Of a stretch of 64,000 nucleotides of DNA, positions 2,474-63,941 are shown piece after piece. The translations under genes and the position numbers were made by a program. Source of the DNA: a virus (taxonomy: Duplodnaviria; Caudoviricetes); IMG/VR virus record IMGVR_UViG_3300029959_000011, positions 4,978 through 68,977 of that record. One strand, written 5' to 3'. The notes under the pieces were generated by a model. The model was not told the DNA's origin, ran no database searches, and was given only the letters and a program-made list of their open reading frames with translations. Positions within the stretch are counted from its first letter, which is position 1. Each line of letters starts with the position of its first letter.

Positions 2474-3868
2474 ATGGCAGTATTCAATCAAAGAAAAATG
2501 AAACACGCGCTTGATCCGATGTGGAATGACATCGAAACAGCATTCGCGTCGTATTCCGCAGCGATAGCAGATAACTCAATTACGAATGCCAAATTAGCGA
2601 CGGACGCTAAAGTAGGAAGCCTTGCAGCATTGACAACTACTGAAAAGGCAAGTGCTATTGGCGCAATCAATGAGCTTGATGCAGGAAAGTATGAGAAACC
2701 TGGAACAGGGATTCCATCAAGCGATATGGCAACAGCGGTACAGACAAGTCTCGGAAAAGCTGATACGGCATTACAGTCAATTACAAGCGGAAGTATTACG
2801 AATGATATGCACGCTACTGATGTTAAGATTGGAAGTCTTGCGGCATTGACAACCACTGAGAAAGGAAGCGTTCAGGGTGCTATCAATGAGCTTGTAACAG
2901 CTAAATATGTTAAACCTGCTGGCGGTATTCCGTCTACAGACATGACTGCGGCTGTACAGACGAGTTTAGGATTGGCAAATACCGCAATGCAGAACTTAGT
3001 TGGCGTAGCAGGAACTCCCGTGAATGCGGTAGCCGCTCAGGGTACTTTAACTATTTCGGGTGTTGCACTTGACGGTGAAACTATTACTGTAAGATCAGAT
3101 GTATATGAGTTTGCGGCTGATACGGCTCTTAGTGTTGCTCCTGGAAATATAGCGATTGATCTTAACTCGGTAACTACAAAATCACAAGGCACTTTAACAA
3201 TAGACACGCAGATAACTTCCGGCAATACAATGACAATCGGTGTTGGCGCAGGTTCAAAAGTATATACATTTGTTCCGAATGGTACTGCAAATGCGGATGG
3301 TGAGGTATCAGTAGGTACAGACCTTGCTACTTGTCAAGCAGCTCTTGTTGCCGCTGTAAACGGTTCTGACGGACATAATACGGCTCATACTCAAGTAACA
3401 ATAGGAAACTTTGCTCTTGATGCGGCAGTAATTACAGCTTTAATCGGTGGAACGGCAGGCGACTTGATTGCTACTACTGAAACATTTACCGCAGGAACGA
3501 ATATTTTTGACGCTGTAACTCTTGGAACAACTACCGCTGGTGTAGATTGTACTCCTGCAAATGCGGAAATAAGAATAGCCGCAACAGCAGGCGGAACAGG
3601 ATATACTTGGGCAGGCGGAGCTGGAACAACCGTAGTAGTAACAGCATCAACTAAAGGCTCAAATGGTAACTTAATTGCACTCGCAACTACTATGTCAAAT
3701 GCTGTATGGGATGCCGCATTCTTAGGAACTACTACGCTTGGTGTTGACGGTACAGTAGGAAATCAGTGGGATTCTAAAGTGGATGCAAGCTATTGGTATG
3801 TTTGTATAGCGGCTAACACGATTGCAGACACTAATTGGAGACGAGTATCGTTAGGTACTGTTTACTAA
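2474..3868 (+). CDS. Ala/Gly/Thr-rich virion fibre or decoration protein
   Basis: 72-aa tandem duplication (LTTTEK..GAINEL..KP..GIP), C-terminal YWYVCIAANT..WRRV motif typical of fibre ends. Confidence 0.5.
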   Translation: MAVFNQRKMKHALDPMWNDIETAFASYSAAIADNSITNAKLATDAKVGSLAALTTTEKASAIGAINELDAGKYEKPGTGIPSSDMATAVQTSLGKADTALQSITSGSITNDMHATDVKIGSLAALTTTEKGSVQGAINELVTAKYVKPAGGIPSTDMTAAVQTSLGLANTAMQNLVGVAGTPVNAVAAQGTLTISGVALDGETITVRSDVYEFAADTALSVAPGNIAIDLNSVTTKSQGTLTIDTQITSGNTMTIGVGAGSKVYTFVPNGTANADGEVSVGTDLATCQAALVAAVNGSDGHNTAHTQVTIGNFALDAAVITALIGGTAGDLIATTETFTAGTNIFDAVTLGTTTAGVDCTPANAEIRIAATAGGTGYTWAGGAGTTVVVTASTKGSNGNLIALATTMSNAVWDAAFLGTTTLGVDGTVGNQWDSKVDASYWYVCIAANTIADTNWRRVSLGTVY

Positions 3869-4654: not shown

Positions 4655-5214
4655 TGGCAGGTCAGACCTACACGAGTTTTGAGCAATGGGCGAGGAAGAT
4701 GAATCGAATAGGTGATGCAATACCTAAAGCCTGTACTCATTGGACACAGAAAACAGCAATAGCGGTAGGTTGGACATTGATAGATAACACACCGGAAGAT
4801 AAAGGCTATGCGGAAGGAAATTGGATTCCGAGCATAGATGCTCCGGTATTGAATCCTGTGGGTATGAAAGCTGGGGACACTTGGCATCAAGACCCCAGTT
4901 ATTACCCAAATCCGCAGGCAGGAATAACACAGTCGAGGGAAGCACTAAAAAGGATAGTAGGTAAATTCAATGCAACAATAAATAACAGTATATATATATG
5001 TAATAATGTAGGTTATATTATTATGCTGAATAACGGGTGGTCGAAACAAGCACCTCGTTTTTTTGTAGAGAAATCATTAAGGAATCCGATATTAAAGGGC
5101 ATGACGAAAAAGGCGATAATGGCAGAAATATCAAAAGAGATGCTTGGTTTATTAGGCAGTCAGAATGTAGCGATAGAAGGTCGTCAGGCAAGTGATTTCA
5201 ATGTAGCGTATTAA
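4654..5214 (+). CDS. HK97 gp10-like neck/tail completion protein
   Basis: TPEDKGYAEGNW, IYICNNVGYIIMLNNGWSKQAP..FVEKS motifs. Confidence 0.55.
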   Translation: MAGQTYTSFEQWARKMNRIGDAIPKACTHWTQKTAIAVGWTLIDNTPEDKGYAEGNWIPSIDAPVLNPVGMKAGDTWHQDPSYYPNPQAGITQSREALKRIVGKFNATINNSIYICNNVGYIIMLNNGWSKQAPRFFVEKSLRNPILKGMTKKAIMAEISKEMLGLLGSQNVAIEGRQASDFNVAY

Positions 5215-16375: not shown

Positions 16376-17146
16376 ATGGAGGAACATATAGAAATAATAC
16401 AAGGGCTACTTAAAGACGGCAAGTCTTACAAAGATATTGGAATGAAATTAGGATGGGATTATCGTAAAGTACGCAAGACTATTTTAACTGAACCTGAATT
16501 ACTTAAATATGATAAGGAATTTATGGCTGAAACTCGCAAAGAGGAATTAGGTAAAATAAAAATATCTAAAGGTATAGATATTGTATCTACGACAAATGTA
16601 GAGCGTACAAAGCTAACCGATCAGACTATAACTAATATCGTAGCAGGATTATCATTTTTAGGTAAGAAAGAAGACGAGATAGCAACAATATTAGGTCTGC
16701 CTACTGAAGCTATAACTGATCTCGTACAGAATGTTCCGACTTTAAAAATATGTTATAAAGATGCTATTGATGTAGCCAATAGTAAGGTAGTAATGGGTTT
16801 AATGGAGGCTATATTGCCGGGAACTATACAAGAGCGTATATATGATGTAACGGAAGTTCCTGATTTGGCAACTAATGAAATTAAGCAATTAAAGAAATTG
16901 GTAAAAATAGTTGAAAAGGATTATAAAGGCAATGTTGACGGTATGCTTAAATGGCTACAAATATACTATCCTGAACGATTCGCTACTAAAGCGAATAACG
17001 ATCTTAATCCTGAAGAATATGGCGTGCTTAAAGTTGATGGCGATGATGATGATGTTGACGATGTTCTTTGGGAAAAACAAACCGAAATGCAACAGGTAAA
17101 ATTAGCGAATGAAATGGCAAAACAAAAAAAACTGATAGATAAATAA
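16376..17146 (+). CDS. terS: Terminase small subunit (putative)
   Basis: HTH-like segments; directly upstream of and overlapping terL. Confidence 0.55.
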   Translation: MEEHIEIIQGLLKDGKSYKDIGMKLGWDYRKVRKTILTEPELLKYDKEFMAETRKEELGKIKISKGIDIVSTTNVERTKLTDQTITNIVAGLSFLGKKEDEIATILGLPTEAITDLVQNVPTLKICYKDAIDVANSKVVMGLMEAILPGTIQERIYDVTEVPDLATNEIKQLKKLVKIVEKDYKGNVDGMLKWLQIYYPERFATKANNDLNPEEYGVLKVDGDDDDVDDVLWEKQTEMQQVKLANEMAKQKKLIDK

Positions 17147-18573
17147 TGATAAAACAATCTGAAAATATTGTTTGGAAACCACAGAAAGGCAGTCAGGTAT
17201 TAGCCCTGAGTTGTCCTATTGAAGAAATCCTGCTTGACGGCCCTAGAGGAACAGGTAAATCTGAAACTTTATTAGTAAAATTTATGAAAGAAGTCGGTAA
17301 AGGCTACGGCACAGATTGGCGTGGTATAATATTCCGTACAGAATATAAAGAGCTTGACGATATAGTTAAAAAAGCTAATAAGTTAAGAGCTAAAATATTC
17401 CCGAAAGCAAGATTTTATAAATCGGCTAAAGAGTATAAAATCGTATGGTCAACTGGAGAGGAATTATTATTTAGAGCAGGCAAGACTGACGAAGATTATC
17501 AAAGCCACTATCACGGTCACGAATACGCATTTTTAGGATTTGAGGAGTTGACTAACTGGCCTGATCCTGATTTTTATTTATCAATGAAAACAACAGTCAG
17601 GTCTGCAAGAATGGGTATGCCGTATTTCTGTATAGCGACTACTAACCCATACGGAATAGGGCATCACTGGGTTAAAGAGCGGTTTTATGATAAAGACCCT
17701 GTTGGAGGAAAGATTATTATAGATGTGTCGCCAAATGGGATGACAAGGAAAAGAGTTCGTATTTATACATCTTTACAGGAAAATAAGGCACTGTTAAGAG
17801 CCAGACCGACTTATATAGCAGATATTATGAGTTTGAAAAATAAAGCGAAACGAGATGCGTGGTTATATGGCGATTGGAATATAGCGGCAGGCGGATATTT
17901 TGAAGAGTATTGGAATCCGAGATATAATGTAGTTACTCCGTTTACAATACCTAAATCTTGGAAAATTGACCGTTCGCTCGACTGGGGATATACTAAGCCG
18001 TTTAGCGTAGGGTGGTGGGCTGAATCAGACGGTTCTGATGTAGTATTGCCTAACGGTTCTTTTATGCCTACGATAAAAGGCGACTTACACCGTATTCACG
18101 AGTGGTATGGCAAGACGGAAGGTCAGATAAATGTAGGCTTAAGAATGGGGTCAACTGATGTGGGATTAAGGATAGTTGAGATTGATAAGAAGATAGAAGA
18201 ATTATACGGCATTAAAGTTGTTCCAGGCGCAGCCGATTCCCAAATATACAGCCAATCCGATCAGGTAATAACTACTGCACAGCAAATGGCAAATGTAGGT
18301 TGTTTTTGGCGCAGGTCGGATAAGGGATCAGGTAGTAGAGCAACAGGCTGGCAGTTAATGGGCGAAATGATGGAAGGCGCAATGACAAGAGAGCGTAAGG
18401 GTTTATTTATATGGAATACCTGCAAGGATTTTATTAAATATGTGCCACGCTTGATGCAGGATAAAGTAAATTTAGACGATATTGATTCAGATCAGGAAGA
18501 CCACATTGCAGATGAGGCACGATACAGAATACAGACTAAAGAACATTCGACCACAGTCGGATTTTATAACTAA
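17146..18573 (+). CDS. terL: Terminase large subunit
   Basis: Walker A GPRGTGKS, Walker B FLGFEELT, ATTNPYGIGHHWVK, nuclease SLDWG and EDHIADEARY. Confidence 0.95.
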   Translation: MIKQSENIVWKPQKGSQVLALSCPIEEILLDGPRGTGKSETLLVKFMKEVGKGYGTDWRGIIFRTEYKELDDIVKKANKLRAKIFPKARFYKSAKEYKIVWSTGEELLFRAGKTDEDYQSHYHGHEYAFLGFEELTNWPDPDFYLSMKTTVRSARMGMPYFCIATTNPYGIGHHWVKERFYDKDPVGGKIIIDVSPNGMTRKRVRIYTSLQENKALLRARPTYIADIMSLKNKAKRDAWLYGDWNIAAGGYFEEYWNPRYNVVTPFTIPKSWKIDRSLDWGYTKPFSVGWWAESDGSDVVLPNGSFMPTIKGDLHRIHEWYGKTEGQINVGLRMGSTDVGLRIVEIDKKIEELYGIKVVPGAADSQIYSQSDQVITTAQQMANVGCFWRRSDKGSGSRATGWQLMGEMMEGAMTRERKGLFIWNTCKDFIKYVPRLMQDKVNLDDIDSDQEDHIADEARYRIQTKEHSTTVGFYN

Positions 18574-18585
18574 TAAGGAGTTATT

Positions 18586-20100
18586 ATGACAACACCAGTC
18601 AATCAGTCAACAGTAAATTCGGTTATCATATCTACGGTAGCTAAACACCCAAAATATGAGCTTATGTACGATATTTGGCAACAGCTAAAGGTTACAGGCG
18701 AGTTAGGCGAACGGGAAGTAAAATTACAGGGTGAAACATATCTGCCTAAAACATCAGGTCAGCTTAAAGACGGTACTGATGGAAATACAAGATATGAAGC
18801 ATATAAGCAAAGAGCCGTATTCTATAACTATGTAGGCGATACGGTAAGTAAGGGATTAGGCATGTTACATACTAAGGCTTCTGTATATAAATTACCAAAA
18901 GCACTTGAGCCGATATTAAAATCATTTACCATAAATGGCGAACCGCTTGACAGCTTCCATAGGGATTTGAATAAAGCGCAATTAAATCCAAGCCGAATAG
19001 GACTTTTGGTTGATATGCCTGAAACTATTGATGCTACATTTATACCTTATATAGTTAAATATAATGCCATGTCAATAGTAAATTGGGATGAATCGCTTGA
19101 TCCGATAACTAAAGATATAAAGTATAATTGGATATTATGCGATGAAAGTTGTTATACATTTGACCAGAAAACTAAATCGTGGACACCGGAAGAAAAATAC
19201 AGGCTATTCGCATTAAGAAATGGAATTAAAGGCAAGGAATATTATACAGCTAATATTACTCCGTCGCAATGGACTACTTGGAATATAGAAAATCCTGACG
19301 AAAGTTTGATAACAGTACCTCGTCTTAATGGCAAATCCTTAACACTTATTCCTTTTGTTATATGTAATGTAACAAATATAAACGGTGAACCGGAATATCC
19401 GCTACTTGAAAATCAGTCTAATCTATCATTATCGCTATACAGGCAAGACGCAGATTATAGACAAGCCTTATTTATGCAAGCATTTTCCATACTTGCGTTA
19501 TTAGGATTTACCGAAGATGAGGTTAAGGGTGGAGTCTATATTGACAGCGCAATACGATCAACAAACGAAAAAGCTAAAGTAGAATACGCAGGCGTGAATG
19601 GTAACGGCTTAATGGAAATGCGTGAAGCTCATAATGCACTTAAAAACGATACGAGAAGCGCAGGACTGAGAATAAGCGAGAAGGAAGGCGTAGAAAGCGG
19701 TAAGGCACTTGAGCAAAGAATAGCATTAACAACAAATGATCTGCTTACAATAGCCAAGACATCGGGCGAAGCAATAACTAAGTTGTGTATGATAATAGCT
19801 GAATGGATGGGCTTATCTGATGCTGAAAAGGCAGAAATAAGCATTGTTCCTAATACCGATTTCAATTATCAGCTAATTCCTGCAAGAGATGTATTCGATA
19901 TGTATCAGGTAGTAGCGCAGGGTGGAATGACTAACGAGGATTACTATAATTGGCTGAAACAGAACGACTTGACTAAATTTCAAACCTATGGCGAATGGAA
20001 GAAAGCTGAACGAGCAGAAATAATTGATTTTAGTAATACTGTAAACAATACAATTACAGAAGGACAAGATGACGACAGTCAATCAGAAGATACAGAATGA
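18586..20100 (+). CDS. Portal protein (DUF4055-like)
   Basis: YLPK..YEAYKQRAVFYN, IPFVICN, NLSLSLYRQDADYRQAL; follows terL. Confidence 0.85.
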   Translation: MTTPVNQSTVNSVIISTVAKHPKYELMYDIWQQLKVTGELGEREVKLQGETYLPKTSGQLKDGTDGNTRYEAYKQRAVFYNYVGDTVSKGLGMLHTKASVYKLPKALEPILKSFTINGEPLDSFHRDLNKAQLNPSRIGLLVDMPETIDATFIPYIVKYNAMSIVNWDESLDPITKDIKYNWILCDESCYTFDQKTKSWTPEEKYRLFALRNGIKGKEYYTANITPSQWTTWNIENPDESLITVPRLNGKSLTLIPFVICNVTNINGEPEYPLLENQSNLSLSLYRQDADYRQALFMQAFSILALLGFTEDEVKGGVYIDSAIRSTNEKAKVEYAGVNGNGLMEMREAHNALKNDTRSAGLRISEKEGVESGKALEQRIALTTNDLLTIAKTSGEAITKLCMIIAEWMGLSDAEKAEISIVPNTDFNYQLIPARDVFDMYQVVAQGGMTNEDYYNWLKQNDLTKFQTYGEWKKAERAEIIDFSNTVNNTITEGQDDDSQSEDTE

Positions 20101-21127
20101 TCTAATACTGCATCAGGCATTATTACTTAATTTAGCATTAAAGCAGAAACGGCAATTTAGGAAAATATTGCAGGAAAATAATATCCTTATCTATAATGAG
20201 ATAATTTCCGCTTATGCCGAATTTACGAGAACGGTATCTAAAACCGAGAACGAACGCTATGAAAAATTAGCTCGCAGATTAGCTAAAGTACGATTGAAAG
20301 CTGTTGTCGAATTTAGGAAAACATACGATAGTGAATTAAAGCGGATGATGAAATTAGAAATAAGTTATATAGATAAGTCGCTACACGATATAACTAATTT
20401 AGATTTTGAAACCGTAAAACCTGATAACACGAATGATTTTCTTAAATACGGCAGTTATTCAGGTAAAACTCCCGATCAGCATTTTAATACGATTGTAGCA
20501 AATGAAGTAAATACATTATTAAGTATAGTTCGAGTAGCGGTTTCTGATAACACAAGTTCAAATCAATTAGGAAAGACTGTTAAGCAGAAATTGAATATAA
20601 TTAACGGTCATGCCGATAGTATCGTACAAACAATTACTTTAGGATTGGCTAATGACGCAAGAAGAAAATTCTTTACTTCTAATACTATCATTCTGCCATT
20701 TGAGGTATTTGTTGCGGTATTGGATAGTGTTACTACAGAGCGATGCAGAGATGAGAATAATAAGCATATAATATACATTATCGGTACTGCGCCCAGACCG
20801 CCTTTGCATTATAATTGCAGATCAGCTGTAGTGCCATTCCTCAATCCATTAGCATTTATAGGCGATAGGGATGAAATAGTAATGTCAAATGGAACTATAA
20901 TGAAGCGCAATAATTTTATTGCTTATATAGGCAAAGCACCCGAACCGATCACATTCGTTAATTGGCTTAAATTACAATCACCCGAAAATCAGAATAAGAT
21001 ATTAGGTGCGGATAGGGCAAAAGCATACAGGGCAGGCGAATTACAATTTACTGAATATGACAGCGAAGGCGGAACGCCAATGGATTTGCAACAAGTATTT
21101 GGGGTATGGGGAATAAAAGCAGTATGA
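20069..21127 (+). CDS. Minor head protein (SPP1 gp7 / Mu F-like)
   Basis: VAVLDSVTTERC..PPLHYNCRS motif. Confidence 0.8.
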   Translation: MTTVNQKIQNDLILHQALLLNLALKQKRQFRKILQENNILIYNEIISAYAEFTRTVSKTENERYEKLARRLAKVRLKAVVEFRKTYDSELKRMMKLEISYIDKSLHDITNLDFETVKPDNTNDFLKYGSYSGKTPDQHFNTIVANEVNTLLSIVRVAVSDNTSSNQLGKTVKQKLNIINGHADSIVQTITLGLANDARRKFFTSNTIILPFEVFVAVLDSVTTERCRDENNKHIIYIIGTAPRPPLHYNCRSAVVPFLNPLAFIGDRDEIVMSNGTIMKRNNFIAYIGKAPEPITFVNWLKLQSPENQNKILGADRAKAYRAGELQFTEYDSEGGTPMDLQQVFGVWGIKAV

Positions 21128-21165
21128 TAAAAGTCATAGGAATTTATTATTTTATTATTTATTAT
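21123..21165 (+). promoter_or_regulatory. Palindromic box plus weak promoter
   Basis: TATGATAAAAGTCATA overlapping TAGGAA-17-TATTAT. Confidence 0.5.
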
Positions 21166-21211
21166 TAGTAGTATAAAATAGCAAACTATAAATAGGATTG
21201 TAGTATGAACA

Positions 21212-21290
21212 AAAAAACAACGGATAGAGCTAAATCGCAGGGCAAAGAAGATACAGGAGAAGCCCTGCGTTTTTGCTCGTGTTATGCGCA
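21212..21290 (+). mobile_element. attC-like hairpin (left boundary of head-operon cassette)
   Basis: AAAAAACAAC-GGATA-GAGCTAAATCGCAGGGC..GCCCTGCGTTTTTGCTC-GT-GTTATGCGCA. Confidence 0.55.
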
Positions 21291-21318
21291 GTCTAAGGAC
21301 TCCAAATCACCGACTGGG

Positions 21319-22065
21319 ATGACCGAAACTAACGACGGGTTGAAAGAAACAAATGAAGATACGATTTACTTGCAATTTCAAGAAGGCTGTCTTGAAAAAT
21401 TAAGGCAAATTGATGAAGAAGTCAAAGAACTTATCAAGAAATTGCCTAAATCACTTGCTATTACTGTCAATAGGTTTCTTGACAGTGATCGTTTCCTTGA
21501 CCATGCTCTTAACCTTGAAATGATTAGTTCTCCCACAGATCTCACAATCACATATATTATCTCCGCAAGTGAGTGCTACCTTGAACTTATTTCCGCAATA
21601 AAGACAGGTGACTATGCTATTATCAAGCCATCTCTTGATTTGTTTGGTGCTGGGCATACTCCCTCCAAGTTTGAGGTTGATTTAAGAAATTTAACAAAAC
21701 AAAACATGAAAGACAAGAACAAAGAAATCCATAAGAAGTTATTACAGGATGTGGATAAGAAACTCCAAAGCGAAACCGAGAAAACGGGGATGACCTTAAC
21801 TAACGATATTAAGAAAGTAAAAATGGATGAAAAAAAAGAATTTAATATATTTAGAGAAGGATATATCGAGGAATCAAATAAATATAGAGAGTGGAGAAAA
21901 GAAAAAATACCAGAAGAGTTTGAAACAACAGAATTTATAGTTCTCGCTATGGATAATTTAATTTCCCATTGTGCATATCCAGAACTCTATATAAAATGGG
22001 TTGAAGTTTATAATCATATAGTGAAAAAACATAATTTAACACTAATGGAAAAACCTATCAATTAA
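21319..22065 (+). CDS. Hypothetical helical protein (cassette cargo)
   Basis: Long ORF; ATG 21319 preferred because the upstream in-frame part is the hairpin. Confidence 0.55.
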   Translation: MTETNDGLKETNEDTIYLQFQEGCLEKLRQIDEEVKELIKKLPKSLAITVNRFLDSDRFLDHALNLEMISSPTDLTITYIISASECYLELISAIKTGDYAIIKPSLDLFGAGHTPSKFEVDLRNLTKQNMKDKNKEIHKKLLQDVDKKLQSETEKTGMTLTNDIKKVKMDEKKEFNIFREGYIEESNKYREWRKEKIPEEFETTEFIVLAMDNLISHCAYPELYIKWVEVYNHIVKKHNLTLMEKPIN

Positions 22066-22339
22066 CATCGGATGATTTTATTATGTAACTATACTCTTGA
22101 AATAAATTGTCAGAGTGTATAAATCTTGACAATCCCTGTCCTTCTTTAATCAATTCTTTCATTTTCTCAACCCTATCTTTTCCAGATTTTTCGTAGTCAA
22201 ATACATATAAATCATCATTTTTAGAAAATCTGATAACAACATAATCGTCACCAATTCTATATTTTACGACATCAGATTTTTTATTTAATCTGCGATACCA
22301 AAAAACAGGATAATGTACTCTATCTTTTTTGTCACTCAT
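22058..22339 (-). CDS. Small KTSC-like protein (cassette cargo)
   Basis: VVKYRIGDDYVVIRF..LYVFDY..MKELIKEGQGLSRFI; RBS AGGGGG. Confidence 0.55.
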   Translation of the reverse strand: MSDKKDRVHYPVFWYRRLNKKSDVVKYRIGDDYVVIRFSKNDDLYVFDYEKSGKDRVEKMKELIKEGQGLSRFIHSDNLFQEYSYIIKSSDVN

Positions 22340-22374
22340 TTTGATACCCCCTTTTATTTTTTTTGTTTTCCTTA

Positions 22375-22677
22375 TTATAATTGAATATCAGTTAATATCC
22401 AATTACCATTTTTATATTGCACCTCGCATATAAATCTTGTTCTTACTATTTCCCCAAATCCATTTTGCGAATCTACATAGCCGTAAATACTAAATTTATT
22501 ATCAGGCAATTCTTTAATCTCCGCATCAAGTATTGAGCAGAAATCGGCAGTTGATGGTGATGAAAGTCTGCTTGTTACAAATCCCTCACATGCTGTAAAT
22601 GCTCCTACTTTTGATGGATCAGAAGAGCATCCGACTAATAGCATTATTAGCAATAACACTAAATTAACTTTTATCAT
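22375..22677 (-). CDS. Predicted lipoprotein (cassette cargo)
   Basis: Signal peptide with lipobox LVGC; LSSPSTADF and VDSQNGFG motifs; RBS AGGAGG. Confidence 0.7.
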   Translation of the reverse strand: MIKVNLVLLLIMLLVGCSSDPSKVGAFTACEGFVTSRLSSPSTADFCSILDAEIKELPDNKFSIYGYVDSQNGFGEIVRTRFICEVQYKNGNWILTDIQL

Positions 22678-22745
22678 TACTCCCTCCTTTTTTTATCCTT
22701 TCTATCCTAATATCTTCTATCCCTATTCTATCCCACTCTATGGAG

Positions 22746-22804
22746 TGCGCATAACAAGCGATAAATGAAGTTTACAATTTTATTTATCGCATCTTATTTT
22801 TTGC
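22746..22804 (+). mobile_element. attC-like hairpin (right boundary of head-operon cassette)
   Basis: TGCGCATAAC-AA-GCGATAAAT..ATTTATCGC-ATC-TTATTTTTTGC; first 10 nt are the reverse complement of 21281-21290. Confidence 0.55.
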
Positions 22805-22831
22805 TTTAGTCAGAGATAATAAAAAAAAAAA

Positions 22832-22884
22832 TATGACAAATATCATAAAAAAGTTGTTGCTAATTATAAAAATTAGCTTATATT
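22832..22884 (+). promoter_or_regulatory. Palindromic box plus promoter for scaffold/capsid genes
   Basis: TATGACAAATATCATA followed by TTGCTA-16-TATATT. Confidence 0.55.
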
Positions 22885-22940
22885 GAAGTATTAAGACAAA
22901 CATGAGGTTGTCATAATAACAAAAACTAAAGGAGAAAGGC

Positions 22941-23705
22941 ATGAGCCTAAAATTTGAAGCAACAAACTTAGACGAAATTGACGAAAGTCTAAGATCGTAT
23001 TACAAAGAAGTCAATGGGAAGTTCGTATTAGACGGCTTATACGAGGCTTTCAAACCTATGGAAGAGTTTAAGACTGTCCATACTGCTTTACAAAAAGAAA
23101 GAGCAGACCATAAAGCCGCAAAAGAAAGAGTAAGTAAATACGGAGAGTGGACACCGGAAAAAATTGAGCAAATTAGCACAGAGTACGAGGAACTGAAACT
23201 CAAAAGCGACAAGACGGGTGATACTGACGAACTGTTTGAGAAAAAAGTAAAACTGAGAACGAAACCGTTTGAAACGCAAATCGAAGCGCAGAAAGCCGAA
23301 GCCGATAAATGGAAGCAGAAGGCAACTGAAACAGAACAAGTGCTAATCGGCATGAAACTCGATCTTGAAATCAATAAGCTATGCGCAGGGACGATTGATC
23401 CTAAATCAATCAAAGATGTAATGTATAGAGCTAAATTTGGCGTGAAATGGGATAATGACTTACAGGAATTTAGGTCAACAGACGGTCTTACATTGCCTGA
23501 GTGGTTTCAAAATGAGAAACAAGACAGTAATTGGGGCTTGCCAAGTGGCGGAGGTGGAGCGAAAGGGTCAGATGGCGGAACAGTATTAGGCGGAAATCCA
23601 TTTAAGCATGGTGATCCTTCGTTTAATGTTACTACACAAGCTAAAATGCTAAAAGACAATCCGAAAGAAGCGGCAAGACTAATGGAATTAGCGAAAAAGA
23701 AATAA
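22941..23705 (+). CDS. Capsid scaffolding protein
   Basis: YKEVNGKFVLD..ALQKERADHK coiled coil; C-terminal SGGGGAKGS..NPF..NVTTQAKML. Confidence 0.8.
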   Translation: MSLKFEATNLDEIDESLRSYYKEVNGKFVLDGLYEAFKPMEEFKTVHTALQKERADHKAAKERVSKYGEWTPEKIEQISTEYEELKLKSDKTGDTDELFEKKVKLRTKPFETQIEAQKAEADKWKQKATETEQVLIGMKLDLEINKLCAGTIDPKSIKDVMYRAKFGVKWDNDLQEFRSTDGLTLPEWFQNEKQDSNWGLPSGGGGAKGSDGGTVLGGNPFKHGDPSFNVTTQAKMLKDNPKEAARLMELAKKK

Positions 23706-23796: not shown

Positions 23797-24831
23797 ATGG
23801 CGGAAAGCACAATAACCAGTTTTTACAACCCCGTATTATTCGATCAGAATTTGATACTTGGGATGTTAAACAAAAACTTACTGATTAACAGTGGCGTAGC
23901 AGTAGTTGACCCACGAGTTATGAAAGTAATTGACGGAGCAAGCGGATCGCAGACTATTGATCTGCCTTATGTAGATGCAATCGCAGCAGACGAGCCGAAT
24001 GTATCAAGCGATGTTACAGGATCAACCTCAACTCCTAAAGCTCGTTCTGGCTCAAAATGCAGAGCTATCGGATCGTTCCTGAATCAATCTTGGTCAGATA
24101 TGGATTTGGTCAAGTATTTTACAGGTGTTGACCCGTTACTTGCAACAATAAACGGAATAGCCGAATACTGGCTGACTTCGTACAATAAAAGACTAATTGC
24201 TACTATTCAGGGTATATTGCTGGACAATACCACTAATGATGGCGGTGATATGGTTTATAATATTGCGAATGCAGCAGCTACTACTGACCCGACTGATGCT
24301 AACCTAATCAGCGCATCGGCTGTTATTAACACAAGGCTTACTTCAGGTGACAGATTGTCAGAATATAATATGATAATCATGCACTCGATAGTATATGCAA
24401 GGCTTGAAGAAAATAACCTCATTGACTTCATTCCTGATTCAGACGGCAAAGTAAACATTCCTACTTATCATGGTATGAGAGTAATGTATGACGATGATAT
24501 GCCGTATGCTGCAACAGGGACAAATGCTGACAGTTCGACAAAATATACTTACGATACTTATTTGCTTGGCGCAGGAACTATTGCGTTTGGCGATGCTAAC
24601 CCTGAAAATGCTTCCGAGCTATACCGTGCGCCTGATAAAGGAAACGGAGGCGGACAGACATATCTGTACTCAAGAAGAATGGTAGCAATCCATCCATACG
24701 GCTTTGACTGGCTTCAAGGATCAATGGCTTCGGATTCTCCTACTCTTGCAGAACTCAGACTTGCCGCTAACTGGAACAGAAAATATGACAGAAAAAGAAT
24801 AAGTATTGCTTGCCTGAGAACTAACGGCTAA
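23797..24831 (+). CDS. Major capsid protein
   Basis: NQSWSDMDL, IIMHSIVY..L, YDTYLLGAGTIAFG, HPYGFDW, NWNRKYDRKRI motifs; follows scaffold. Confidence 0.9.
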   Translation: MAESTITSFYNPVLFDQNLILGMLNKNLLINSGVAVVDPRVMKVIDGASGSQTIDLPYVDAIAADEPNVSSDVTGSTSTPKARSGSKCRAIGSFLNQSWSDMDLVKYFTGVDPLLATINGIAEYWLTSYNKRLIATIQGILLDNTTNDGGDMVYNIANAAATTDPTDANLISASAVINTRLTSGDRLSEYNMIIMHSIVYARLEENNLIDFIPDSDGKVNIPTYHGMRVMYDDDMPYAATGTNADSSTKYTYDTYLLGAGTIAFGDANPENASELYRAPDKGNGGGQTYLYSRRMVAIHPYGFDWLQGSMASDSPTLAELRLAANWNRKYDRKRISIACLRTNG

Positions 24832-51924: not shown

Positions 51925-52075
51925 TTCTTGCTCCTTTTGATAATTTGATTTTTTTTTTGCATCATACCTCCGTTTTTTAGGGTTATTACACTGCTTCTAA
52001 ATTACTATTATTTCAAGATTTTGGATAAGGTCGAAAAGGCTGTATTTCCTTTTTCCCGTTGTTGTGCGAAATAAC

Positions 52076-52897
52076 TTAACATTCGGTTTTCTCTTCCTGA
52101 ACAAATAGGTTATTTAACAGCGGATGCAGTCTTTTCTTAATGATTTGACAGTATTCTTCACTGATTTCACTGCCTATGTAGTTTCGATTAGAAGCAATCG
52201 CAGCTTTCGCAGTAGTTCCGCTACCCATAAACGGATCGTAAACTAAATCACCCTCGTTACTCCAGCTTATTATATGATCATAAGCAAGCCTTTCAGGAAA
52301 TATTGCAGGGTGTTCAAAGGCAACGCTGTCTTTTGTTGTATGGGATCCTCCTGAATTATAATGCCATATATTATACTTTATTTTTGTTTCTTTAACAGTC
52401 ATAGTATTCCGGCGGGTCCTAAATGCAGAATTTTGAGACCGACTTCCTTTTTCTGTCTCTGGCCGGTCGAGTGAATTTCCATAGTATTGACATTTTTCAA
52501 GCATTGGATTAAATGTATTCGGTTTGCCTTTGCTTAACACGAACATATACTCAAAATTCTGCTCATACCTGTTATGATTTAATGGCATTTTATCTGTAGC
52601 ATATATCATTGTATCGTGCAAATTAAATCCGATTTCCTTAAAATACAAGGCTTGCTTAAAACTCGTTCCTGATTCGCTTCCGTTTATGGTAGCATCTCCG
52701 ACCACCCAGACCACAACTCCGCCATGTTTTGTTACTCTGTATAATTCTCTTGCGACTGCTTCAAAATCGAAACTAAAGCCGTTGTAAACTCTAAGATTAT
52801 CGTAAGGTGGGCTTGTTACTGTCAAATCTATAAACGCATCAGGCATCCGCTTCATAGTGTCGAGATTGCTTTCGCAGTATATCTTATTTATCTCCAT
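52076..52897 (-). CDS. Beta-class DNA methyltransferase (SPPY, likely N4-cytosine)
   Basis: DLTVTSPPY, HPAIFP, VYDPFMGSGTT. Confidence 0.9.
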   Translation of the reverse strand: MEINKIYCESNLDTMKRMPDAFIDLTVTSPPYDNLRVYNGFSFDFEAVARELYRVTKHGGVVVWVVGDATINGSESGTSFKQALYFKEIGFNLHDTMIYATDKMPLNHNRYEQNFEYMFVLSKGKPNTFNPMLEKCQYYGNSLDRPETEKGSRSQNSAFRTRRNTMTVKETKIKYNIWHYNSGGSHTTKDSVAFEHPAIFPERLAYDHIISWSNEGDLVYDPFMGSGTTAKAAIASNRNYIGSEISEEYCQIIKKRLHPLLNNLFVQEEKTEC

Positions 52898-52914
52898 TAA
52901 AACCTCATTATTCC

Positions 52915-53049
52915 TTCGCATAACAATTGAAAAATGCAGGGTCTATTATTGCATCGTTCATCTGTCTGTCTTTATTTGGTATTTTCAACTCATTATTTCT
53001 TTTCACCTTGCGCATAGTTCCCTCTTTTTTCAGTTTTCCGTTGATCGAA
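52915..53049 (-). mobile_element. attC-like site between the two methyltransferase genes
   Basis: Minus strand TTCGATCAAC..TGAAAAAAGAGGG..CCCTGCATTTTTCA-ATT-GTTATGCGAA. Confidence 0.55.
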
Positions 53050-53071
53050 ATACTTAACGATAATTGAGACT

Positions 53072-53857
53072 TCATAGGTTAAACAACCTTTCCGTTTGAG
53101 AATTTGCGAATTGTTGTATTCGGTTTCTTGCAATTTCACAGTATTTTGCCTCTTTTTCTATCAAGATATATTTGCGATTTGTTTCCAAACAAGCCAATCC
53201 GGTCGTGCCACTTCCAGCACAGTTATCGAGAACGATCTCGCCTTCGTTGGTATAGGTGCGGATAAGATACTTGAAAAGTTCAACAGGCTTTTGTGTGGGA
53301 TGTTGCGTGCCGTTTCTTTTATCGTCTTTATTGATGTGTAATATATTAGTTGGATACTTATACCATTGTTCGGCTTTTGATTTTCTTATTATCAAATTAT
53401 TCCGATGATTCTGAATATTATTACCCCAACTTTTACTGTCGTTTTTGCGATAACATTTCTTGTATTCGTCTTCAGTTCTTTTTGTCATTACTGGGTAATA
53501 CTTAACCTTATTTATTCCAAATACTAAAACATCTTCATTCGCTTTCATTGGCATATATTGAGCGCCGAACGCTCCTGTCGGCCTATTTTTTATCCACTGC
53601 CATTGATGCTTAAACATTTTCGGATTACTCATCACCAAAGCCGAAGTAAAAGGCTGGCTTGCTGTCAATACAATAGCCCCGTTGTCTTTTATTATCCGCT
53701 TATACTGCGCCCAAAGTGGCTCAAACGGAATTATTACATCCCACTTACACGCAGTAGTACCGTAAGGCAAATCGCATAAAATCATATCTACTGATTTATC
53801 TGGAATCAGAGGCATTACCTCTAAGCAGTCACCTTGATATACTTGATTTAATTCCAT
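53072..53857 (-). CDS. Beta-class DNA methyltransferase (DLPY, likely N6-adenine)
   Basis: MILCDLPYG, HPTQKPV, VLDNCAGSGTT. Confidence 0.9.
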   Translation of the reverse strand: MELNQVYQGDCLEVMPLIPDKSVDMILCDLPYGTTACKWDVIIPFEPLWAQYKRIIKDNGAIVLTASQPFTSALVMSNPKMFKHQWQWIKNRPTGAFGAQYMPMKANEDVLVFGINKVKYYPVMTKRTEDEYKKCYRKNDSKSWGNNIQNHRNNLIIRKSKAEQWYKYPTNILHINKDDKRNGTQHPTQKPVELFKYLIRTYTNEGEIVLDNCAGSGTTGLACLETNRKYILIEKEAKYCEIARNRIQQFANSQTERLFNL

Positions 53858-54033
53858 TTGCAAATTCTCCTCAATTATCTATACTTCGTTCAACAACGGC
53901 AAAATGACATAAAAACAACCTACTCATTTGACTGGGAATATTATTTGTTGTATTCTGTTCATGCTGATTTACGCTCCGTTTTACGCTTTTAGCCTGTGAC
54001 CGATAAAACCATAAGCCTAAAAATTATAAGCTC

Positions 54034-60909: not shown

Positions 60910-61157
60910 TTATAATGATTATAATTTAGTGCGTAAATAGTATTTATTATTAAATTGTAATGATTATAATTTAGATTTTATTAAAAAAGTGTTTAGGCAC
61001 GATTAACACTCTGAAGATTTCTGACAATTACTGACAACCAGGATAATTTTTTCGATCGGATTATGTTTTTATATCATTACAAGCCTATATTTTGATTTTT
61101 TGATGTCGTATAATAAATATTATGTAAACTTGTATAATTTAATTGTAATGATTATAA
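60910..61157. promoter_or_regulatory. Three 7-1-7 inverted repeats matching the PerR/Fur-family box
   Basis: TTATAATGATTATAA 60910-60924; TTGTAATGATTATAA 60955-60969 and 61143-61157. Confidence 0.55.
61103..61130 (+). other. dif-like XerC/XerD recombination site
   Basis: ATGTCGTATAA-TAAATA-TTATGTAAACT (11-6-11). Confidence 0.65.
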
Positions 61158-63834: not shown

Positions 63835-63941
63835 ACTCTGGCTCTGGCTATGGCTCTGGCTATGGCTCTGGCGATGGCTCTGGCTATGGCTCTGGCTCTG
63901 GCTCTGGCGATGGCTCTGGCTATGGCGATGGCTATGATTAA
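63822..63941 (+). CDS. 39-aa Gly-X repeat peptide
   Basis: MEKLNSGSGYGSGYGSGDGSGYGSGSGSGDGSGYGDGYD, encoded by (TCT/TAT/GAT)GGC hexamers; RBS GGAG. Confidence 0.6.
   Translation: MEKLNSGSGYGSGYGSGDGSGYGSGSGSGDGSGYGDGYD

Follow-up and report, generated by a model that had tools for sequence, protein, structure and literature searches.

Between the minor head gene and the head scaffolding gene of an orphan phage of about 69 kb lies an insert of about 1.8 kb (21128–22940) with three accessory open reading frames (ORFs), P0003, P0004 and P0005. The phage is represented by a 68,977-bp virus record (IMGVR_UViG_3300029959_000011), of which bases 4978–68977 were analysed; this stretch of 64,000 nt is called the window, and all other coordinates refer to it. 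Near each end of the insert a stem-loop stands beside one arm of an inverted repeat, and a preliminary description had taken the block for an integron-like cassette acquired by hairpin recombination. Our tentative preference is for an ordinary moron, in which the boundary stem-loops are most likely transcription signals and the repeat is most likely a coincidence that resembles integron cores. We hold this to be slightly likelier than a hairpin cassette that became fixed and decayed.

The insert and its probable transcription

In Vibrio phage 033B and Pseudomonas phage PaMx25, both distantly related, the minor head gene is followed by a gene of scaffold size after a gap of about 60 bp. Because this junction is so tight in the relatives, the block 21128–22940 is an insert of accessory genes (a moron) in the head module, and on this point the preliminary description was right. 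The G+C content is 0.26–0.30 over 21800–22600 versus 0.33–0.43 in the flanks. The block thus interrupts a gene pair that is contiguous in relatives and differs from the backbone in composition, as is characteristic of morons. The ORFs of the insert and the palindromic boxes on either side of them are as follows.

21123–21137, plus strand: TATGA-N6-TCAT box, followed about 22 nt on by a −10-like TTATTA; putative promoter of P0003
21205–22065, plus strand: P0003, orphan protein of 286 amino acids (aa)
22058–22339, minus strand: P0004, 93 aa, convergent with P0003, with an overlap of 8 nt
22375–22677, minus strand: P0005, 100 aa, predicted lipoprotein with a signal peptide ending in LLVGC
22832–22846, plus strand: second TATGA-N6-TCAT box, with a promoter-like site at 22857–22884 ahead of the scaffold gene

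The TATGA-N6-TCAT box is seven-fold enriched (11 matches versus 1.5 expected) and probably binds a phage or host activator. An alignment of seven boxed promoters places a −10-like element about 22 nt after the box and a start codon 20–40 nt further on. Boxes at 21123, 22832, 36052, 50187, 55137, 61585 and 61893 stand 40–70 nt before start codons. The box at 21123 overlaps the stop codon of the minor head gene, and the distance of ATG 21205 from it agrees with that of the start codons at the other boxed promoters. P0003 would be read from this phage promoter and from this ATG. Upstream of ATG 21205 the frame is open for only three codons, and the next in-frame ATG is codon 39; we estimate that the 38 codons ahead of that ATG would be free of stop codons by chance in about 6% of cases.

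The left stem-loop is GC-rich, is followed by TTTTT (21227–21275) and falls within the first 25 codons of P0003, where it may pause or attenuate the transcript. P0005 and P0004, both of which carry strong AGGAGG-type ribosome-binding sites, would be transcribed convergently with P0003, starting from the 263-bp spacer on their right. A consensus scan ranks the right hairpin first among terminator-like sites (plus strand, with a T run), and this stem-loop together with its T run (22758–22802) would stop plus-strand transcripts before the scaffold promoter (box 22832). Transcripts stopped there would be antisense over P0005 and P0004.

Morons are reportedly accessory genes that sit between conserved genes and bring along a promoter and a terminator of their own, a view associated with Juhala et al. 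in 2000 and with Hendrix and colleagues. Like the morons of tailed phages, the block is inserted between conserved head genes, has two reversed genes and a lower G+C content, ends in a terminator-like hairpin and carries a lipoprotein gene. Unlike them, it has cross-complementary cores beside both hairpins, which are not expected of morons, and one of its genes would use the phage's own boxed promoter.

Boundary stem-loops and inverted repeat

The elements at the two boundaries, named for their likeness to the attC sites of integrons, are listed here.

21212–21290, plus strand: left attC-like site, consisting of AAAAAACAAC, a 5-nt spacer, an imperfect 17-bp hairpin, a 2-nt spacer and GTTATGCGCA
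21280–21290, plus strand: left arm of the inner inverted repeat, TGTTATGCGCA, exact over 11 bp
22746–22756, plus strand: right arm of the inner inverted repeat, TGCGCATAACA, exact over 11 bp
22746–22802, plus strand: right attC-like site, consisting of TGCGCATAAC, AA, a 9–15-bp hairpin, AT and CTTATTTTTT

The 10-mer GTTATGCGCA lies at 21281–21290 and its reverse complement TGCGCATAAC at 22746–22755, as first described, and the exact repeat is in fact 11 bp long. It brackets 1,455 bp and extends to 23 nt at 78%. The hairpins that had been assigned to the two cores are real stem-loops. At the left site, which corresponds to codons 3–29 of P0003, the arms 21227–21243 and 21262–21278 (17 nt each) are 88% complementary, and the fold as single-stranded DNA has −16.5 kcal/mol (z −4.1). 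Among the 60-nt folds of the window this hairpin ranks third in stability, after the stretches 63841–63900 and 4851–4910 (−29.3 and −24.4 kcal/mol, RNA parameters). The right hairpin (22758–22790) is weaker than the left one, with z −2.3 as DNA and −3.5 as RNA with flanks for the 57–59-nt site.

The preliminary description had also stated that the outer halves pair. AAAAAACAAC and CTTATTTTTT are complementary at 8 of 10 positions. Its expectation that rejoining would place one hairpin on an excised circle and one on an empty site was borne out: the circle junction folds with −16.6 kcal/mol versus −8.2 in situ, and the empty site with −16.2 kcal/mol and a closed R box.

An inverted repeat of 10–11 bp is, taken alone, at chance level. 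Inverted repeats of at least 10 bp with arms 300–3000 bp apart number 319 in the window versus 293 ± 18 in shuffled sequences, and those of at least 11 bp number 105 versus 80 ± 9. The 10-mer with at most two mismatches occurs 58 times versus 58.7 expected; the core as a repeated motif of the genome was rejected. A sigma-70 promoter in the core was also considered and rejected, as the spacing does not fit. A repeat with a hairpin of at least 8 bp within 12 nt of both arms appeared in 21 of 350 shuffles (6%), and in the observed arrangement in 6 of 350 (1.7%).

For the complete layout we used a rule that was written after the sites had been seen: AAC, 2–8 nt, a helix scoring at least 9, 0–4 nt, then GTT or CTT. 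Five sites in the window follow this rule, two of them being the boundary sites, versus a mean of 2.8 in shuffles, and 12% of shuffles contain a same-strand pair of such sites within 3 kb. The stretches 3625–3745 and 3808–3859 hold a palindromic AAC...GTT site that passes the rule on both strands and a hit of a covariance model that is described below.

Comparison with integron attC sites and cassette arrays

The attC consensus consists of an inverse core RYYYAAC and a core GTTRRRY, and extrahelical bases help the integrase to choose the strand (PMC5027507, Nivina et al. 2016). The left site reads AAACAAC (two mismatches) and GTTATGC (one mismatch), and the right site GCATAAC (one mismatch) and CTTATTT (three mismatches, with the invariant G absent), which confirms the C|TT in place of G|TT that had been noticed before. 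The left site has spacers of 5 and 2 nt, asymmetric like those of the reference sites described below, and the right site has spacers of 2 and 2 nt. When the boundary sites were folded as single-stranded DNA, as the preliminary description had suggested, no extrahelical bases appeared in the folds (symmetric 1×1 mismatches at the left, a perfect stem at the right). In situ, R'' and R' are complementary at only 4 of 10 positions per site, and the minimum-energy folds leave AAC and GTT unpaired.

The closest reference for such sites came from the neighbourhood of another gene of the phage. The second methyltransferase (52076–52897, minus strand) has 542 relatives in viral contigs, and at about 15 of the 80 loci that were surveyed among them we found unmistakable arrays of hairpin cassettes. 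The sites of these arrays combine an inverse core that ends in TAAC with a spacer of 4 nt, a long L stem that has a single mismatch, and a core GTTA; their core words are TGCNNNTAAC and GTTANNNGCA. Ten loci (L098, L106, L123, L128, L131, L132, L137, L153, L159 and L167) carry co-oriented arrays of 3–6 hairpin sites spaced 0.3–1.3 kb apart, and an N6/N4 DNA methyltransferase is one cassette of these arrays in uncultured viral contigs. In the seven arrays that we compared (L098, L106, L123, L128, L131, L137 and L153), the chain complementarity from one site to the next is at least 9/10 in 16 of 24 cassettes, and pairing within a site is 5–7/10.

Two covariance models were built from these arrays, R1 from five sites and the broader R2 from 26 sites. 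R1 recovers about 30 further sites at 12 non-training loci with 15–54 bits, all of them co-oriented in arrays, and 26 sites at E ≤ 0.01 across all 80 loci. In the window its best hit is the right boundary site, with exact ends (12.5 bits, E 2.2), next to unrelated hits of 9.8–12.3 bits; the left site scores 5.5 bits. R2 gives 14 window hits at E ≤ 10, among which the right site has rank 7 (10.0 bits, E 3.6) and the left site rank 11 (8.8 bits, E 6.8). The two sites stand among 8–14 noise hits per window. The scores of the two sites are therefore at noise level for the whole window, and membership in the family is not shown by the models. The rank of the two sites is also not independent evidence, because they had been chosen for features that the model scores. 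The proposed attC covariance check, done with these models of our own, thus yields hits with exact ends in the insert region, but only 5.5–12.5 bits and window-wide E values of 2.2–6.8. A search of the window against Rfam gave only noise. The top R2 hit of the window (12.8 bits, E 0.75) is at the 3′ end of the ORF 2474–3868 and is probably noise as well.

Phage-borne attC clusters without integrase (CALINs) have been published, and one of them adjoins a terminator with inverted GTTRRRY words (PMC9892861, Qi et al. 2023). Like integron cassettes and CALINs, the boundaries studied here show the AAC-hairpin-GTT layout (57 and 79 bp), a cargo 5′ end complementary to the 3′ inverse core, no integrase nearby (as in CALINs) and an insert beside a terminator-like hairpin. 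Unlike them, there are two sites only, the right one with CTT, cores that deviate from the consensus by 1–3 positions, R boxes unpaired in situ, no extrahelical bases and model scores at noise level. The usual cassette holds one promoterless, co-oriented ORF. Here the block has three genes that point in both directions and carry ribosome-binding sites of their own, and the left site lies inside the single co-oriented ORF, which starts 77 nt upstream of the proposed crossover.

The likeness to the TAAC/GTTA arrays of viral contigs consists in the core words, in a chain complementarity of 9–10/10 with weak pairing within the site, and in the longer AAC-side spacer of the left site. The sites of those arrays differ in scoring 15–54 bits, versus 8.8–12.5 bits here, and in forming co-oriented groups of 3–6 at 0.3–1.3 kb; in addition, the outer halves AAAAAACAAC (A6CAAC) and CTTATTTTTT do not fit the reference core words, and the cargo families are unseen in such arrays.

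Weighing of the explanations

An ordinary moron is the explanation that we tentatively prefer, and several results weigh against it. The promoter and terminator counts of the consensus scans are not above those of shuffles, and the left stem-loop, with its 18-nt loop within coding sequence, would be an odd terminator. The inner cores are complementary at 10/10 positions from site to site and at 4/10 within each site, and TGCGCATAAC and GTTATGCGCA fit all seven fixed positions of TGCNNNTAAC and GTTANNNGCA. This fit counts only in combination, because the core word stands at its expected frequency in the window (9 occurrences versus 8.8). In the 1.85-kb insert region R2 hits just these two sites, both on the plus strand with exact ends (E 0.1 and 0.2 for a space of that size). 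Finally, the full layout with a cross-complementarity of at least 9/10 arose in 0 of 1,200 shuffles, and with at least 8/10 in 1 of 1,200. The shuffle control that the preliminary description had named as a test is thus favourable to it for the full layout and unfavourable for the repeat alone, which is common. By extrapolation we estimate that the full layout arises by chance at a rate of about 1e-5 to 1e-4 per window, which is small but not negligible in a large scan, and a chance origin has to accept a coincidence of this size.

Chance together with ordinary hairpins accounts for the weak model scores, the overlap with an ORF, the gene content and the absent enzyme. Geometry, core words and chain complementarity are accounted for by a decayed cassette, which must in turn accept the CTT of the right site, a split ORF, atypical cargo and a recombinase from an unnamed source. 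Given that the prior for such cassettes in a phage window is well under 1%, the two explanations come out close.

The cassette explanation, which is possible though doubtful, would have a single hairpin-bounded TAAC/GTTA (integron-like) cassette that is now fixed and decaying. It would have entered as a circle with the site TGCGCATAAC-hairpin-C|TTATGCGCA and recombined, at G|TT, with a terminator-like hairpin (A6CAAC...GTTATTTTTT) that followed the minor head gene, using an enzyme from the host or from a co-infecting phage. The outer halves would then be the two halves of this terminator-like landing site, and their complementarity of 8/10, next to 10/10 for the inner cores, compares with the chain complementarity of the reference arrays. 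The exact ends and first rank of the right site with R1, the spacer asymmetry of the left site and the published phage attC cluster beside a terminator (PMC9892861) also speak for it. Set against this are the noise-level scores, the unexceptional count of the core word, the missing G at the right site, and folds with unpaired R boxes and no extrahelical bases.

The gene content fits a cassette poorly as well. As the left site lies inside an ORF served by a phage promoter, the proposed crossover would cut P0003 after codon 26, downstream of its only in-frame start, and the 38 open codons would then have to be one of the 6% of chance cases. Of the three cargo genes two are reversed and have strong ribosome-binding sites, and relatives of P0005 never adjoin such sites: R1 found none in the 589 kb around them. 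As the preliminary description had stated, no integrase is visible; searches of the whole 68,977-bp record for tyrosine and serine recombinases gave no match to PF00589 or PF00239 at E ≤ 1. Its proposal of uptake by hairpin recombination thus agrees with how the ends are laid out, with their core words and with the chain complementarity, and is at odds with the model scores, the invariant G, the extrahelical bases and the R-box pairing. That a tailed phage which uses Shine-Dalgarno sites and encodes no recombinase took up a 1.5-kb unit of three genes into its head operon by attC-type recombination at a terminator-like hairpin, with the enzyme supplied in trans, is in our view rather unlikely.

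If this capture did take place, it would represent a single cassette at a secondary, terminator-like site in an essential late operon, and would be relevant to the question of how phages acquire accessory genes when homology and an integrase of their own are lacking. The range of the cassette system would widen beyond a few cultured phages (PMC9892861) and the arrays of uncultured viral contigs, the system would extend past co-oriented arrays, and terminators could serve as landing sites. If there are only terminators and a chance repeat, the case calls for caution, since look-alikes of AAC-hairpin-GTT sites then arise at moron boundaries, and a flank repeat of 9/10 is found around a third to half of genes.

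The figures for such flank repeats come from the methyltransferase genes (52040–53990), which are flanked by 9/10 complementary GTT.../...AAC words like the cores of the insert. The flank repeat was seen at 48% of 75 homologous loci versus 32% of permuted pairs. Profiles trained on the cargo sites or on the methyltransferase-flank sites each rank the other set first among non-training hits (E 0.4–4). The array-derived covariance model finds no site at these flanks, and their local alignment is not significant, with a score of 26 that is reached by 15 of 100 shuffles. That the methyltransferase flanks belong to the same site family as the ends of the insert is unproven. A homology between the N-terminus of P0003 and a small ORF ahead of the second methyltransferase was rejected; the shared DNA is read in different frames.

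A third, improbable explanation makes the repeat two copies of one 5′ regulatory unit (a stem-loop or T run and then UGUUAUGCGCA), heading the P0003 unit (plus strand) and the P0005-P0004 unit (minus strand), with a weaker copy ahead of the second methyltransferase. The inversion would then follow from convergent transcription and not from recombination. Both copies do point into the cargo from a position between promoter region and coding sequence. An RNA fold (−33.5 kcal/mol, z −4.0) pairs the left core with the ribosome-binding site and AUG of P0003, but this pairing uses many G-U pairs. The start of the second methyltransferase is preceded, at a distance of 18 nt, by a similar stretch, CCCTGCATTTTT-CAAT-TGTTATGCGAAG, which is the best non-training hit of the profile trained on the two cargo sites; against it stand the insignificant alignment score given above and a motif that is not enriched. 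The outer AAC and CTT boxes and the match to the cassette core words would be left unexplained.

Units of promoter and stem-loop have a known counterpart in the promoter-early stem-loops (PeSLs), which Arbiol et al. reportedly described in 2010 as mobile regulatory cassettes of T4-type phages. The likeness lies in small accessory genes that are bounded by repeated units of promoter and stem-loop, for which a role in shuffling these genes has been proposed. PeSLs differ in being direct repeats that recombine by homology; here the repeat is inverted, 11 bp long and present once.

It is very improbable that the 11-bp repeats are the ends of another mobile or switchable segment, be it a terminal-inverted-repeat element without transposase, an inversion by a host tyrosine recombinase or an Xer/dif-type module: the perfect inverted repeat around 1,455 bp and an ORF that after inversion would stay open for 27 more codons from 21205 suit such a segment, but there is no target-site duplication and no transposase or invertase in the record, the hairpins lie outside the repeat, and inverted repeats of this length are numerous in the window (105 versus 80 ± 9). 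The core GTGCGCATAA equals what we take to be the XerC arm of E. coli dif. An Xer/dif site is defined as 28 bp with an XerC arm, a centre of 6–8 bp and a conserved XerD arm; no XerD-type arm lies beside any core, and an Xer/dif module at the cores was rejected on the neighbouring 11-mers, which are A-rich and unlike TTATGTWAAMT. The phage, which has no integrase, does contain a good dif-like site of the form 11-6-11 at 61103–61130, ATGTCGTATAA-TAAATA-TTATGTAAACT, a point in favour of such a module; TTATGTWAAMT is matched exactly at one place in the window, the XerD-type arm of this site.

An ordinary moron thus stays our preferred, if tentative, account of the insert, and the remaining results concern its backbone and its proteins. 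Terminase, portal, minor head gene, three extra ORFs, scaffold and major head gene follow one another along the plus strand of the late region, where P0004 and P0005 are the sole minus-strand genes in a structural block of 30 kb. The backbone genes, named from the annotation of the window's ORFs, are the following.

17146–18573, plus strand: large terminase
18586–20100, plus strand: portal
20069–21127, plus strand: minor head (head morphogenesis) protein, phrog_241 (E 8e-46), left neighbour of the insert
22941–23705, plus strand: head scaffolding protein, phrog_206 (E 8e-23), right neighbour of the insert
23797–24831, plus strand: major head protein

The phage genes use Shine-Dalgarno sites. 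In tblastn searches the minor head protein matches head morphogenesis genes of Queuovirinae phages, and the closest backbone relatives are 35–44% identical for the capsid protein and 33% for the minor head protein. No close relatives of the phage were found in the phage, viral, metagenome or genome collections searched. A blastn search against phages gave no match to the window DNA, peptide scans of viral and metagenome contigs with the minor head protein gave no close relative, and those with the capsid protein gave only the relatives of 35–44% identity and none in the genome collection. Exact-pattern scans of viral contigs for the left or the right site gave no occurrence. The eight proteins around the site are all singleton clusters, on 2–5 contigs.

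P0003 contains an internal duplication, in which residues 37–102 (approximate limits) resemble residues 194–258. At the DNA level the duplication is marked by a 47-nt direct repeat of 70% identity (21313–21359 and 21784–21830; TGMTETND... and TGMTLTND...), and the G+C content falls from about 0.38 to about 0.27 at its second copy. The only relative among 1.84 billion representatives is a repeat protein of 1700 aa (E 4e-11); there was none in viral contigs or phages, and no match among families or in the atlas and defence library. P0004 has a weak match to phrog_17428 and one to Imm43 below the cut-off (E 0.019), and searches of the same three resources gave no clear family.

P0005 carries a VDSQNGFG motif and, in an AlphaFold2 model (predicted local distance difference test score, pLDDT, 89.6), an NTF2-like cone fold; the fold search returned weak matches only, either NTF2-like or to the N-domain of PBP2a. 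The cargo would probably act at the cell envelope, for instance in superinfection exclusion by this lipoprotein, a function that is a guess. Linkage of the three cargo genes was not found in 80 other viral loci. Relatives of P0005 are 71–72% identical on other contigs and share the signature L[KR]SPSTADF ... GYVDSQNGFG, which defines a family without a Pfam match. They occur in at least 149 viral loci at varied genome positions (including loci L012–L091), as a widespread family of small membrane-anchored proteins, and relatives are also present in phages of Microcystis, Bacillus, Enterocloster, Yersinia and Leeuwenhoekiella.

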